DNA from: a virus | Taxonomy: Duplodnaviria; Heunggongvirae; Uroviricota; Caudoviricetes | IMG/VR virus record: IMGVR_UViG_2603880147_000004 | DNA: 8,331 nucleotides | Reading direction: 5' to 3' (one strand) | Part shown: piece by piece, positions 1-8,331 of the stretch | Layout: each line of letters begins with the position of its first letter | How positions within the stretch are numbered: the first letter of the stretch is position 1 | Made by a program: the position numbers and the translations under genes | Notes under the pieces: model-generated | What the model was told of the DNA's origin: nothing | The model's database searches: none | Seen by the model: the letters and a program-made list of their open reading frames with translations, nothing else

Positions 1-309
1 AGTGAAACCCGGTATGGATGTGGCTTCGGCCCCTTCCGTAAGAAAGTGCGCTTTGGTGATGGCTATTCCCAGCGAGCGCCTGCCGGGCTGAATGCCGACC
101 TGAAAACGTACAGCGTGACGCTTTCTGTTCCCCGTTGGGAGGCCACGGCGCTGGAGTCGTTTCTGGCTGAGCACGGGGGCTGGAAAGCCTTTCTGTGGAC
201 GCCGCCTTATGAGTGGCGGCAGATAAAGGTGACCTGCGCAAAATGGTCGTCGCGGGTCAGTATGCTGCGTGTTGAGTTCAGCGCAGAGTTTGAACAGGTG
301 GTGAACTGA
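1..309 (+). CDS. M: Tail tip protein M, 3' portion (5' end lies upstream of the window); reading frame appears to shift at an A-run near 40-45
   Basis: Frame 1 from 46 to stop TGA 307-309 translates to VRFGDGYSQRAPAGLNADLKTYSVTLSVPRWEATALESFLAEHGGWKAFLWTPPYEWRQIKVTCAKWSSRVSMLRVEFSAEFEQVVN, matching my recollection of the lambda gpM C-terminus. Bases 2-45 match gpM only in frame 2 (VKPGMDVASAPSVRK). Stop overlaps the L start (TGATG). Confidence 0.8.
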   Translation, partial: SETRYGCGFGPFRKKVRFGDGYSQRAPAGLNADLKTYSVTLSVPRWEATALESFLAEHGGWKAFLWTPPYEWRQIKVTCAKWSSRVSMLRVEFSAEFEQVVN

Positions 310-1011: not shown

Positions 1012-1755
1012 ATGACACAGACAGAATCAGCGATTCTGGCGCACGCCCGGCGATGTGCGCCAGCGGAGTCGTGCGGCTTCGTGGTGAGAGCGCCGGAGGG
1101 GGAAAGATATTTTCCCTGCGTGAATATCTCCGGTGAGCCGGAGGCGTATTTCCGTATGTCGCCGGAAGACTGGCTGCAGGCAGAAATGCAGGGTGAGATT
1201 GTGGCGCTGGTCCACAGCCACCCCGGTGGTCTGCCCTGGCTGAGTGAGGCCGACAGGCGGCTGCAGGTGCAGAGTGATTTGCCGTGGTGGCTGGTCTGCC
1301 GGGGAGTGATTCATAAGTTCCGCTGTGTGCCGCATCTCACCGGGCGGCGTTTTGAGCACGGGGTGACAGACTGTTATACGCTGTTCCGCGATGCCTATCA
1401 TCTGGCGGGGATTGAGATGCCGGATTTTCATCGCGGGGATGACTGGTGGCGTCACGGTCAGAATCTCTATCTGGATAATCTGGAGGCCACAGGGCTGTAT
1501 CAGGTGCCGTTGTCAGCGGCACAGCCGGGCGATGTTCTGCTGTGCTGTTTTGGTTCATCGGTGCCGAATCACGCCGCCATTTACTGCGGCGACGGCGAGC
1601 TGCTGCACCATATTCCTGAACAACTGAGCAAACGAGAGAGGTATACCGACAAATGGCAGCGACGCACACACTCCCTCTGGCGTCACCAGGCATGGCACGC
1701 ATCTGCCTTTACGGGGATTTACAACGATTTGGCCGCCGCATCGACCTGCGTGTGA
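1012..1755 (+). CDS. K: Tail tip assembly protein K (lambda gpK family), two-domain JAMM/MPN + NlpC/P60
   Basis: Intact ORF. ATG at 1012 lies 4 nt after the L stop (MTQTESAILAHARRCAPAESCGFVV...). JAMM-type motif HSHPGGLPWLSEAD (HxH-x7-S-x2-D) with an upstream Glu (PAESCGF). NlpC/P60-like Cys (GVTDCYTLF) and His (NHAAIYCGDGELLHH) follow. Start is uncertain: the track offers TTG 970 inside L, and the classical lambda annotation uses the internal ATG at 1156. Confidence 0.88.
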   Translation: MTQTESAILAHARRCAPAESCGFVVRAPEGERYFPCVNISGEPEAYFRMSPEDWLQAEMQGEIVALVHSHPGGLPWLSEADRRLQVQSDLPWWLVCRGVIHKFRCVPHLTGRRFEHGVTDCYTLFRDAYHLAGIEMPDFHRGDDWWRHGQNLYLDNLEATGLYQVPLSAAQPGDVLLCCFGSSVPNHAAIYCGDGELLHHIPEQLSKRERYTDKWQRRTHSLWRHQAWHASAFTGIYNDLAAASTCV

Positions 1756-2324
1756 AAACGGGGGCCGAAGCCATCCGCGCACTGGCCACACAGCTCCCGG
1801 CGTTTCGTCAGAAACTGAGCGACGGCTGGTATCAGGTACGGATTGCCGGGCGGGACGTCAGCACGTCCGGGTTAACGGCGTAGTTACATGAGACTCTGCC
1901 TGACGGCGCTGTGATTCATATTGTTCCCAGAGTCGCCGGGGCCAAGTCAGGGGGCGTATTCCAGATTGTTCTGGGGGCTGCCGCCATTGCCGGATCATTC
2001 TTTACTGCCGGAGCCACTCTTGCAGCATGGGGGGCAGCCATTGGGGCCGGTGGTATGACCGGTATCCTGTTTTCTCTCGGTGCCAGTATGGTACTTGGTG
2101 GTGTGGCGCAGATGCTGGCACCGAAAGCCAGGACGCCCACGGCAGCAAGTACAGATAACGGCAAACAGAACACCTATTTCTCCTCACTGGATAACATGGT
2201 TGCCCAGGGCAATGTTCTGCCCGTTCTGTACGGTGAAATGCGCGTGGGGTCGCGGGTGGTCTCTCAGGAGATCAGCACGGCAGACGAAGGGGATGGTGGT
2301 CAGGTTGTGGTGATTGGTCGCTGA
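1653..2324 (+). pseudogene. I: Tail tip assembly protein I (lambda gpI family), interrupted by an in-frame TAG at 1881-1883
   Basis: ATG at 1653 overlaps the K 3' end by 103 nt in another frame, as in lambda. The frame is open for 76 codons (MAATHTLPLASPGMARICLYGDLQRFGRRIDLRVKTGAEAIRALATQLPAFRQKLSDGWYQVRIAGRDVSTSGLTA), then TAG, then the same frame continues with no further stop to TGA 2322-2324 (LHETLPDGAVIHIVPRVAGAKSGGVFQIVLGAAAIAGSFF...GGQVVVIGR). Total length 672 bp equals a 223-aa gpI plus stop. In lambda the position is Gln (CAG) as I recall. Confidence 0.85.
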
Positions 2325-2370: not shown

Positions 2371-2384
2371 ATGGAGCATGACGA

Positions 2385-5300
2385 ATGGGTAAAGGCAGCA
2401 GTAAGGGGCATACCCCGCGCGAAGCGAAGGACAACCTGAAATCACCCAGATGCTGAGCGTGATAGACGCCATCAGCGAAGGGCCGATTGAAGGTCCGGTG
2501 GACGGATTAAAAAGCGTGCTGCTGAACAGTACGCCGGTGCTGGACAGTGAGGGGAATACCAATATCTCCGGCGTCACGGTGGTGTTCCGGGCAGGTGAGC
2601 AGGAGCAGACACCGCCGGAGGGATTTGAATCCTCCGGCTCCGAGACGGTGCTGGGTACGGAAGTGAAATACGACACGCCGATTACCCGGACCATCACGTC
2701 GGCAAACATCGACCGTCTGCGCTTTACCTTCGGTGTGCAGGCACTGGTGGAAACCACCTCAAAGGGGGACCGGAATCCGTCGGAAGTCCGCCTGCTGGTT
2801 CAGATACAGCGTAACGGTGGCTGGGTGACGGAAAAAGACATCACCATTAAAGGCAAAACCACCTCACAGTATCTGGCATCGGTGGTGGTGGATAACCTGC
2901 CGCCGCGCCCGTTCAATATCCGGATGCGCAGGATGACGCCGGACAGCACCACAGACCAGCTGCAGAACAAAACGCTCTGGTCGTCATACACCGAAATCAT
3001 CGATGTGAAACAGTGCTACCCGAACACGGCACTGGTCGGCGTACAGGTGGATTCGGAGCAGTTCGGCAGCCAGCAGGTGAGCCGTAATTATCATCTGCGC
3101 GGGCGTATTCTGCAGGTGCCGTCGAACTATAACCCGCAGACGCGGCAATACAGCGGTATCTGGGACGGAACGTTTAAACCAGCATACAGCAACAACATGG
3201 CCTGGTGTCTGTGGGATATGCTGACCCACCCACGCTACGGCATGGGGAAACGTCTTGGTGCGGCAGATGTGGACAAATGGGCGCTGTATGTCATCGGCCA
3301 GAACTGCGACCAGTCAGTGCCGGACAGCTTTGGCGGCACGGAGCCGCGCATCACCTGTAATGCGTACCTGACCACACAACGCAAGGCCTGGGATGTGCTC
3401 AGTGATTTCTGCTCGGCGATGCGCTGTATGCCGGTATGGAACGGGCAGACGCTGACGTTCGTGCAGGACCGACCGTCGGATAAGGTGTGGACCTATAACC
3501 GCAGTAATGTGGTGATGCCGGATGATGGCGCGCCGTTCCGCTACAGCTTCAGCGCCCTGAAGGACCGCCATAATGCCGTTGAGGTGAACTGGATTGACCC
3601 GAACAACGGCTGGGAGACGGCGACAGAGCTTGTTGAAGATACGCAGGCCATTGCCCGTTACGGTCGTAATGTCACGAAGATGGATGCCTTTGGCTGTACC
3701 AGTCGGGGGCAGGCACACCGCGCCGGGCTGTGGCTGATTAAAACGGAACTGCTGGAAACGCAGACCGTGGACTTCAGCGTGGGTGCTGAAGGGCTTCGCC
3801 ATGTACCGGGCGATGTCATTGAAATCTGCGATGATGACTATGCCGGTATCAGCATCGGCGGGCGCGTGCTGGCGGTGAACAGCCAGACCCGGACGCTGAC
3901 GCTCGACCGTGAAATCACGCTGCTATCCTCCGGTACTACGCTGATAAGCCTGGTTGACGGAAGTGGCAATCCGGTCAGCGTGGAGGTCCAGTCCGTCACC
4001 GACGGCGTGAAGGTAAAAGTGAGCCGTGTTCCTGACGGCGTTGCAGAATACAGCGTGTGGGGGCTGAAGTTGCCGACGTTGCGCCAGCGCCTGTTCCGCT
4101 GTGTGAGTATCCGTGAGAACGATGACGGCACGTATGCCATCACCGCCGTGCAGCATGTACCGGAAAAAGAAGCCATCGTGGATAACGGGGCGCACTTTGA
4201 CGGCGACCAGAGCGGCACGGTGAATGGCGTTACGCCGCCAGCGGTGCAGCACCTGACCGCCGAAGTCACCGCAGACAGCGGGGAGTATCAGGTACTGGCC
4301 CGCTGGGACACGCCGAAGGTGGTGAAGGGCGTGAGCTTCCTGCTCCGTCTGACCGTAACAGCGGATGACGGCAGTGAGCGGCTGGTCAGCACGGCCCGGA
4401 CGACGGAAACCACATACCGCTTCAGGCAGCTGGCGCCAGGGAACTACAGGCTGACGGTCCGGGCGGTAAATGCGTGGGGACAGCAGGGCGATCCGGCGTT
4501 GGTATCGTTCCGGATTGCCGCCCCGGCAGCGCCGTCGCGGATTGAGCTGACGTCGGGCTATTTTCAGATAACTGCCACGCCGCATCTTGCGGTTTATGAT
4601 CCGACGGTACAGTTTGAGTTCTGGTTCTCGGAAAAGCGGATTGCGGATATCAGGCAGGTTGAAACCACAGCACGCTATCTTGGCACGGCGCTGTACTGGA
4701 TAGCCGCCAGTATCAATATCAGGCCGGGCCATGATTATTATTTTTACGTTCGCAGTGTGAACACCGTTGGCAAATCGGCATTCGTGGAGGCTGTTGGTCA
4801 GCCGAGTGATGATGCATCCGGCTATCTGGATTTTTTCAAAGGCGAGATAGGGAAAACCCATCTGGCTCAGGAGCTGTGGACGCAGATTGATAACGGTCAG
4901 CTTGCGCCTGACCTGGCTGAAATCAGGACGTCCATTACGGATGTCAGCAATGAAATCACGCAGACCGTCAATAAGAAACTGGAAGACCAGAGTGCGGCAA
5001 TTCAGCAGATACAGAAGGTTCAGGTTGATACAAATAATAACCTGAACAGCATGTGGGCTGTGAAGCTGCAGCAGATGCAGGACGGACGCCTTTATATCGC
5101 GGGTATTGGTGTCGGTATTGAGAACACCCCTGACGGCATGCAGAGTCAGGTGCTGCTGGCGGCGGACAGGATTGCGATGGTTAATCCTGCGAATGGCAAC
5201 ACAAAACCGATGTTTGTTGGTCAGGGCGATCAGATATTCATGAACGACGTGTTCCTGAAACGCCTGACGGCCCCCACCATTACCAGCGGTGGAAATCCAC

Positions 5301-5863
5301 CGGCATTTTCCCTGACACCGGACGGAAAGCTGACTGCTAAAAATGCGGATATCAGTGGCAGTGTGAATGCGAACTCCGGGACGCTCAACAACGTCACGAT
5401 TAATGAGAACTGTCAGATTAAGGGGAAACTGTCAGCCAATCAGATTGAAGGCGATATTGTCAAAACAGTGGGTAAGGCTTTCCCGCGGGACTCCCGGGCA
5501 CCGGAGCGGTGGCCATCAGGGACCATTACCGTCAGGATTTATGACGATCAGCCTTTTGACAGGCAAATTGTTATTCCAGCGGTGGCATTCTGCGGCGCTA
5601 AACATGAGCGGGAGAATAACGATATTTATTCGTCATGCCGCCTGATAGTGAAGAAAAATGGTGCTGAAATTTATAACCGTACCGCGCTGGATAATACGCT
5701 GATTTACAGTGGTGTTATTGATATGCCAGCTGGTCACGGCCACATGACGCTGGAGTTTTCGGTGTCAGCATGGCTGGTAAATGACTGGTATCCCACAGCA
5801 AGTATCAGCGATTTGCTGGTTGTGGTGATGAAGAAAGCCACCGCTGGCATCAGTATCAGCTGA
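2385..5863 (+). pseudogene. J: Tip attachment / host specificity protein J (central tail fibre), with a frameshift about 20 codons from the start; the long open frame is 2450-5863
   Basis: ATG at 2385 with GGAG at 2373-2376 encodes [20 protein letters not shown], the gpJ N-terminus as I recall it, and hits TGA at 2454-2456 after about 22 codons. The 1137-codon ORF 2450-5863 is in another frame, begins [32 protein letters not shown] (lambda gpJ residues about 23 onward) and has no SD before its ATG. This implies a net 1-bp deletion near 2440-2448. The rest is gpJ-like to about 4840, then divergent. Confidence 0.88.
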
Positions 5864-6594: not shown

Positions 6595-8331
6595 ATGGCA
6601 GTACGGATTTCAGGTGTACTGAAAGATGGCGCAGGTAAGCCGATACAAAACTGCACCATTCAGCTAAAGGCCAGGCGCAACAGCACCACGGTGGTGGTGA
6701 ACACAGTGGCCTCAGAAAACCCGGATGAAGCCGGGCGTTACACAATGGACGTCGAGTATGGTCAGTACAGCGTCAGTCTGTTGGTGGAGGGATTCCCGCC
6801 GTCACACGCCGGGATTATCACCGTATATGAGGACTCAAAGCCGGGCACACTGAATGATTTCCTCGGTGCAATGACGGAGGATGATGTCCGGCCAGAGGCA
6901 CTGCGCCGTTTTGAACTGATGGTGGAAGAGGTGGCGCGTAACGCGTCCGCAGTGGCACAGAACACGGCAGCCGCGAAGAAGTCAGCCAGCGATGCCCGCA
7001 CCTCAGCCCGGGATGCGGCGGCCTCAAAAGAGGCAGCGAAATCATCAGAAACGAACGCATCATCAAGCGCCAGTAGTGCCGCTTCCTCGGCAACGGCGGC
7101 AGGAAATTCCGCGAAGGCGGCAAAGACGTCCGAGACGAACGCCAGGTCTTCTGAAACGGCAGCGGGACAGAGTGCCTCAGCTGCGGCAGGCTCAAAAACA
7201 GCGGCTGCATCATCAGCCAGTGCCGCGTCAACAAGTGCCGGGCAGGCCTCAGCCAGTGCCACCGCTGCCGGAAAGTCGGCAGAAAGTGCTGCATCGTCTG
7301 CTTCAACAGCCACAACGAATGCTGGCGAAGCCGCTGTACAGGCCAGCGCAGCAGCGAGGTCAGCTTCCGCAGCGAAGACATCCGAAACGAACGCGAAAGC
7401 GTCGGAAACCAGCGCAGAATCCTCAAAAACGGCTGCCGCATCGTCCGCCAGTTCGGCGGCGTCATCGGCATCATCTGCGTCTGCTTCAAAAGATGAGGCG
7501 ACCAGACAGGCGTCAGCAGCGAGGGGCAGCGCCACGACGGCATCCACGAAGGCGACAGAGGCTGCTGGCAGTGCGGCAGCGGCAGCACAGAGCAAAAGTA
7601 CGGCAGAATCCGCAGCAACGCGCGCTGAGACAGCGGCAAAACGTGCAGAGGATATTGCATCCGCCGTGGCGCTTGAGGATGCGAGCACGACGAAAAAGGG
7701 GGTAGTACAGCTCAGCAGTGCGACCAACAGCACTTCCGAGTCACAGGCGGCAACGCCAAAAGCCGTTAAGGCCGCGTATGACCTGGCTAACGGGAAATAC
7801 ACCGCACAGGATGCAACGACAGGACAGAAAGGGATAGTTCAGCTCAGCAGTGCGACTAACAGCACTTCCGAGTCACAGGCGGCAACGCCAAAAGCCGTTA
7901 AGGCCGCGTATGACCTGGCTAACGGGAAATACACCGCACAGGATGCAACGACAGGACAGAAAGGGATAGTTCAGCTCAGCAGTGCGACTAACAGCACTTC
8001 CGAGTCACAGGCGGCAACGCCAAAAGCCGTTAAGGCCGCGTATGACCTGGCTAACGGGAAATACACCGCACAGGACGCTACGACAGCACAAAAAGGAATT
8101 GTCCAGCTCAGTAGTGCAACCAACAGCACATCTGAAACGCTTGCTGCGACACCGAAAGCAGTGAAAGCAGCTAATGACAATGCGAATGGTCGGGTACCTT
8201 CTGCCCGTAAGGTGAATGGTAAGGCGCTTTCAGCGGATATAACACTGACGCCGAAAGATATCGGTACGCTTAACTCAACAACAATGTCATTCAGCGGTGG
8301 TGCTGGTTGGTTCAAATTAGCAACGGTAACC
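6595..8331 (+). CDS. stf: Side tail fibre protein Stf, 5' partial (open to the window end, 579 codons, no stop)
   Basis: I translated frame 1 by hand from ATG 6595 to 8331 and found no stop. The ORF track omits it, presumably because it has no stop in the window. N-terminus MAVRISGVLKDGAGKPIQNCTIQLKARRNSTTVVVNTVASENPDEAGRYTMDVEYGQYSVSLLVEGFPPSHAGIITVYEDSKPGTLNDFL resembles lambda Stf as I recall it. An Ala/Ser/Thr-rich low-complexity region follows, then repeated KGIVQLSSATNSTSE..AATPKAVK tail-fibre motifs. G-rich SD-like run at 6585-6590. Confidence 0.9.
   Translation, partial: MAVRISGVLKDGAGKPIQNCTIQLKARRNSTTVVVNTVASENPDEAGRYTMDVEYGQYSVSLLVEGFPPSHAGIITVYEDSKPGTLNDFLGAMTEDDVRPEALRRFELMVEEVARNASAVAQNTAAAKKSASDARTSARDAAASKEAAKSSETNASSSASSAASSATAAGNSAKAAKTSETNARSSETAAGQSASAAAGSKTAAASSASAASTSAGQASASATAAGKSAESAASSASTATTNAGEAAVQASAAARSASAAKTSETNAKASETSAESSKTAAASSASSAASSASSASASKDEATRQASAARGSATTASTKATEAAGSAAAAAQSKSTAESAATRAETAAKRAEDIASAVALEDASTTKKGVVQLSSATNSTSESQAATPKAVKAAYDLANGKYTAQDATTGQKGIVQLSSATNSTSESQAATPKAVKAAYDLANGKYTAQDATTGQKGIVQLSSATNSTSESQAATPKAVKAAYDLANGKYTAQDATTAQKGIVQLSSATNSTSETLAATPKAVKAANDNANGRVPSARKVNGKALSADITLTPKDIGTLNSTTMSFSGGAGWFKLATVT
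7699..8193 (+). repeat. In-frame tandem repeat inside stf: three 132-bp (44-codon) units plus a degenerate partial fourth
   Basis: Units 7699-7830, 7831-7962 and 7963-8094 are almost identical at the nucleotide level. Units 2 and 3 differ only in their last ~24 nt; unit 1 differs at a few positions near its 5' end. Each encodes G(V/I)VQLSSATNSTSESQAATPKAVKAAYDLANGKYTAQDATT(G/A)QK. A diverged copy follows at 8095 to about 8193 (GIVQLSSATNSTSETLAATPKAVKAANDNANGR). Confidence 0.9.

Follow-up and report, generated by a model that had tools for sequence, protein, structure and literature searches.

Phage lambda needs gene J both to assemble its tail and to adsorb, whereas the side tail fiber gene stf is dispensable in the laboratory. 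The lambda J protein (gpJ; tip attachment protein J, or central tail fiber; PDB 8IYK, 8XCG, and others) is encoded after gpI, with a 60-nt spacer, a hairpin, and a Shine-Dalgarno (SD) sequence ahead of it. Its N-terminal region lies in the HDII-insertion domain, packed on gpL's C-terminal domain and on gpI (PMC10721106; PMC11101478). Phage 21 and Escherichia coli O55:H7 RM12579 carry a J allele that reads K-S-S-Q-M-L-S at residues 19 to 25, and J genes of this phage-21 type are elsewhere intact and annotated as full-length gpJ.

Lesions and frame changes in lambdoid tail genes have been described before. A single-base frameshift, verified experimentally, inactivates the tail-fiber gene stf of lambda PaPa (PMC10721106). 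Defective lambdoid prophages of E. coli, such as the Sp prophages of O157 Sakai, occur as several similar copies per genome with frameshift and nonsense lesions in their morphogenesis genes, and both the frameshift mutations and complementation by co-resident prophages are documented (PMC2669165). The lambda tail operon also contains a programmed −1 frameshift, that of G/G-T, in which two overlapping frames are joined at a conserved slippery heptamer in an arrangement conserved across phages.

The DNA examined here (the window) is 8331 bp long and constitutes the entire contig JNRO01000056.1 of GCA_000704685.1, a draft assembly of E. coli 3-020-07_S1_C1. Gene calls and Pfam matches give the gene order M (partial)-L-K-I-J-lom-stf (partial), which is the synteny of a tail-tip module and is collinear with an annotated prophage of strain 1297KP. 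This Qin-like prophage is the nearest complete relative (98.8% identical), and its gpJ is annotated as intact with 1159 aa. K-I-J is also found, each time with the start of J intact, on contigs JNRO01000059 and JNRO01000076 of this assembly, so the genome contains at least three copies of the region.

As in lambda, J in the window follows gpI after a 60-nt spacer with a hairpin and an SD sequence. The hairpin (positions 2344 to 2366) is GC-rich and leads into a T-run (AACCGCCTCCGGGCGGTTTTATCGTTT). Lambdoid phages show almost no variation in it, and the phage 21 record labels it a terminator. A simple terminator scan of the window did not call it. The SD sequence (GGAG, 2373 to 2376, plus strand) is located 8 nt upstream of the ATG at 2385 and has a calculated anti-SD duplex energy of −5.6 kcal/mol; the ribosome-binding site annotated for J of phage 21 is arranged in the same way.

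Translation from this ATG is soon interrupted. The opening reading frame (2385 to 2456, plus strand; ATG GGT AAA ... AAA TCA CCC AGA TGC TGA) consists of 20 authentic gpJ codons, three out-of-frame codons (PRC), and the TGA at 2454 to 2456. Its first 20 residues are 100% identical to those of intact J proteins, lambda gpJ among them. The body of J, positions 2450 to 5863 on the plus strand, follows in the −1 frame as the sole long open reading frame downstream; it has 1137 codons and is otherwise intact. The Pfam domains FNIII-A_GpJ, Phage-tail_3, Ig_J, Ig_J_second, Phage_Tail_Tip, and Ig_GpJ_C, all of them common to lambda gpJ, match the 1137-aa body far above their gathering cutoffs, and gpJ domains are present through the C-terminal receptor-binding domain. 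An earlier note on this DNA had assigned the gpJ N terminus to an ATG with a proper SD at 2385 that stops at TGA 2454 to 2456, had placed the J body in another frame from 2450, and had held that full-length J could not be made by standard translation. The first two statements are correct, and the third is supported by the translation and by the frameshift-aware alignment that the note had proposed. We ran this alignment with tblastn and an intact J as the query, and J residues 1 to 20 and the remainder of the protein fall in two frames. Residues 1 to 20 align in frame 3 (2385 to 2444) with 100% identity, and identity returns in frame 2 from Q22 (CAG, 2447 to 2449) and is near-complete thereafter. 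The frame-2 segment pair begins at 2405, with the codons ahead of 2447 being out-of-frame mismatches. No uninterrupted reading frame of about 1130 to 1165 codons that includes the conserved N-terminal motif is present at the J locus as written.

The locus as written is therefore a gpJ pseudogene, a frameshifted gene spanning 2385 to 5863 on the plus strand as defined by translation, by the alignments, and by the reading frame that a restored T recovers. Because this frame structure is read deterministically from the sequence, chance is not at issue. While lambda J and every other J gene that we examined are continuous, J here is broken after codon 20.

Comparison with the phage-21-type allele traces the break to a single base. 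At this site phage 21 and O55:H7 RM12579 have AAATCATCCCAGATG and the window has AAATCACCCAGATG, so that, relative to these two, it lacks one T between positions 2444 and 2445 (plus strand). Within the allele the site is AAATCA[T]CCCAGATG, the bracketed T of codon 21 being the lost base. Phage 21, E. coli WAT, and O55:H7 RM12579 all read AAATCATCCCAGATGCTGAGCGTGATAGACGCC, and the window is identical minus the T after TCA. The earlier note had called a net 1-bp deletion at about 2440 to 2448, and the missing T indeed lies inside that interval. Restoring it yields a reading frame of 1159 aa with no internal stop, 99.3% identical and ungapped relative to gpJ of strain 1297KP. The in-frame ATG at 2450 is therefore no new start; it is simply the codon for Met23 in the phage-21-type allele (Leu in lambda).

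To ask how widespread the deletion is, we searched 5426 complete E. coli genomes with an 86-base query centered on the site and obtained 6717 places. An exact match is not among them; the best matches are 86/87 and correspond to the window plus one base, that is, to the phage-21-type allele, which in many genomes has the same 86 bases around the site bar the missing T. Among phage records, the query spans 87 bases in all 15 listed matches of 181 records. The comparison with related strains suggested by the earlier note gives the same picture, as all 22 fetched relatives that cover the J site retain the extra base and none has the deletion. Scans for the exact pattern in contigs of viral, species-representative genome, and metagenome origin returned no gpJ with the deletion. 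Where they gave anything, it was chance matches of 20 to 26 bp in unrelated organisms (e.g., Rhodoferax and Corynebacterium), the 11 matches to the deleted 20-mer being 21 to 26 bp long.

Two sets of candidates for a shared arrangement or a sibling locus were considered and set aside. A few phages that span 401 rather than 402 bases, and so seemed one base shorter with a 401-base query, proved to differ by 1 bp in the I-J spacer and have an intact J. Contigs of GCA_000704745.1 and GCA_000704765.1, assemblies adjacent in accession number, are only 98.5 to 98.9% identical to the window and do not qualify as orthologous siblings; the start of J is intact in both, as is gpM in the one that reaches gpM. 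The deletion in J is thus found on this contig alone, indicating that the two-frame arrangement is not a conserved feature. Functional phages sharing this frame structure, which the earlier note had said would count against a lesion, are absent among the phages and genomes examined.

J is not the only damaged gene of the module. gpI (1752 to 2324, plus strand) contains an in-frame amber codon (TAG, 1881 to 1883; Gln in lambda) within its N-terminal Lambda_tail_I domain, which splits the gene into reading frames of 43 and 137 aa. The same amber is present in strain 1297KP, where gpI is annotated with an "internal stop" as a pseudogene, and in all three K-I-J contigs of the assembly; the 137-aa gpI fragment is present in exact form on 19 contigs belonging to several assemblies. 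Because it is present in independent assemblies, the gpI amber is certainly real. The 137-aa frame itself starts with GTG (1911 to 2324), corresponds to gpI residues ~87 to 223, and takes in the portion that lambda tail-tip structures resolve (from residue 101 or 135).

The 3' part of gpM (1 to 309, plus strand) carries a second 1-bp deletion, GG to G at positions 46/47, which changes AAAGGTGCG to AAAGTGCG and shifts the frame. All 17 relatives covering this site have GG, and the deletion is confined to this contig. The frameshift escaped the gene callers, since the frame downstream of it stays open up to the edge of the contig. Together, the J deletion, the gpM deletion, and the gpI amber on one contig indicate that the tail module is defective in several places. 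A 1-bp difference from strain 1297KP at about position 1006 was considered as a third lesion and rejected as a natural variant of the L-K spacer that is common to intact prophages. The spacer (1008 to 1011) measures 4 nt in the window, as it does in several prophages that are intact, and 5 nt in 1297KP and others, and the difference is a harmless length polymorphism in the A-run after the L stop codon. In a related prophage of another assembly (GCA_974490485.1, CDDJTG010000007.1, positions 1451 to 9519), the tape-measure gene is in four reading frames and J is truncated to 1014 aa, which suggests heavy decay or an indel-rich assembly.

The remainder of the contig has several features of its own. 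Relative to its relatives, it contains 13 bases unseen in any of 29, of which 8 lie at 1255 to 1395 and 3 at 3302 to 3388, the others being at 1688 and 1748; these look like unsampled alleles. The patch of 8 bases at 1255 to 1395 falls within gpK (1012 to 1755) and may represent either an unsampled K allele or a mosaic made by the assembly. Near the other end, a 132-bp (44-codon) tandem repeat (7699 to 8129; 3.3 copies, 95% matches) lies inside an stf-like side tail fiber reading frame that runs past the contig end. The repeat has about one copy more than in strain 1297KP (8331 versus 8202 bases aligned) and probably explains why the contig breaks off. An Rfam scan of the window returned no family.

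We next considered whether J might still be expressed, either by −1 frameshifting within 2405 to 2456 or by reinitiation at the AUG at 2450 to give a J without residues 1 to 22, and we regard this as very unlikely. In its favor, the leader UGA at 2454 starts 1 nt after the AUG at 2450, the overlap reading AUGCUGA, and stop/start overlaps of this kind can allow translational coupling and could permit some reinitiation. Further, the RNA from 2440 to 2540 folds better than its shuffles (z = −3.2), and P-site slippage on the CCCC run at 2413 to 2416 is possible in principle. However, intact J genes have this same downstream sequence and fold, which argues against a dedicated stimulator and means that the fold says nothing specific to a frameshift. 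The zero frame from 2385 to 2456 contains no X XXY YYZ heptamer, only the runs GGGG (2405) and CCCC (2413), and no SD precedes the AUG at 2450 (duplex, +0.4 kcal/mol), leaving programmed recoding unsupported. Although the site resembles lambda G/G-T in being located in a lambdoid tail operon with two overlapping frames, it has neither the conserved heptamer nor an arrangement conserved across phages, and none of the other J genes that we examined shows the two-frame structure. Slippage at CCCC would also swap out 10 conserved residues. As for reinitiation, the 22 residues that would be missing include a motif, G-S/G-x-K-x-H/R-x-P-x-E-x-x-D-x-[LV]-x-S, that is conserved in distant homologues and aligns with those of solved structure (F2-pyocin fiber, J-like gp24, PDB 9L9P), so a truncated J is unlikely to be fully functional. 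Less probable still is a scenario in which the deletion is real and reinitiation at AUG 2450, through its overlap with UGA 2454, produces a J lacking its first 22 residues; such a protein might join or poison tails built from co-resident intact J, altering the host range or yield of the released particles.

The weightier question is whether the T is missing from the cell or only from the assembly. We put about an even chance on a genuine, very recent deletion in J within an already nonfunctional tail module, that is, ordinary prophage decay. The competing account, to which we assign a chance somewhat short of even, is that the DNA of the cell keeps both the T in J and the G in gpM, that J is intact, and that the frameshift was made by merging short reads of near-identical prophage copies. 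The two make different predictions at the J site, a consensus error predicting AAATCATCCCAG and a real mutation AAATCACCCAG. Consensus error is favored by the setting: the window makes up the whole of an 8331-bp contig in a draft assembly, it covers a region present at least three times in the genome, and multicopy regions in draft assemblies are prone to such errors. It is also favored by the pattern of differences, as the two single-base deletions lie within 2.4 kb and are both private in the comparison with 29 relatives; leaving aside the unseen bases as likely unsampled alleles, the differences unique to the contig are deletions only, as expected of consensus errors. Other related contigs, with the exception of one (L032), show zero gaps in pairwise alignment, whereas the window shows 1 to 3 gaps against each of them. 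The 1137-aa J product (KDZ18284.1) is confined to this one contig, and the exact K and J proteins of the contig occur on no other contig in a 153-billion-gene index. Further, the best K-allele identity among 12,288 places in complete genomes is 97.9%, and a K allele no closer than this makes the contig an unusually fine mosaic. With the window being such a short draft contig from a multicopy prophage region, a consensus error is thus nearly as likely here as a true mutation.

Several observations nonetheless fit poorly with an artifact. The window differs by 65 to 124 mismatches from the two other copies in the assembly, which differ from each other by 10, and this rules out a chimera of those two J-bearing contigs. 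The missing T is a singleton outside any homopolymer, which is atypical for homopolymer-type sequencing errors. For J, it is conceivable that lambda-type (TCCACGCAG) and 21-type (TCATCCCAG) alleles were mixed to give TCACCCAG by gapped alignment, but the same explanation fails for the gpM deletion, where the relatives are without heterogeneity and no allelic differences lie nearby to cause a gapped-consensus artifact. The gpI amber is real, and further real lesions are therefore to be expected in the module. Consistent with a genuine pseudogene, intact orthologues exist without the lesion, the full reading frame returns upon restoring the T, and further inactivating lesions (the gpI amber and the gpM deletion) are present in the same module.

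In the reading that we favor, we infer that the T is absent from the DNA itself and not just from the consensus. The gene would then be the lambda-type J of a lambdoid prophage, serving tip attachment and host specificity, and the missing T of codon 21 would be what inactivated it. Ribosomes entering at the SD and the ATG at 2385 would make a 23-residue peptide and halt at the TGA at 2454. Because the 1137-codon body is without its own ribosome-binding site, no full-length J would be produced and probably little or no truncated J, and any truncated J is presumed not to be made or not to be functional. The shared gpI amber and the gpM frameshift would place the J deletion in a module under relaxed selection, in keeping with ordinary prophage decay. 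The assembly contains at least two more copies of J whose 5' ends are intact, and these could supply J in trans.

Such a lesion has clear parallels in the systems described above. It resembles that of lambda PaPa stf in being a single-base frameshift that inactivates a tail-fiber gene, but the stf lesion is experimentally verified and the J lesion is known from a draft consensus only. It likewise resembles the lesions of Sakai Sp-type prophages in its multicopy lambdoid setting, with the difference that the J lesion is seen on one draft contig alone.

The choice is thus between a frameshifted gpJ, in a lambdoid prophage region that is defective and multicopy, and an error of one base in the draft contig. 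Both readings are of an ordinary, well-known kind, and there is no support for a new mechanism. The importance of the finding is slight outside annotation. Should the frameshift be an artifact, it would be an example of short multicopy prophage contigs yielding false pseudogenes and "unique" database proteins. If it is real, J, M, and I are all broken, and this copy of the prophage is unable to build a tail tip by itself; any particle formation would then require help from co-resident lambdoid prophages, a situation already known from E. coli O157.
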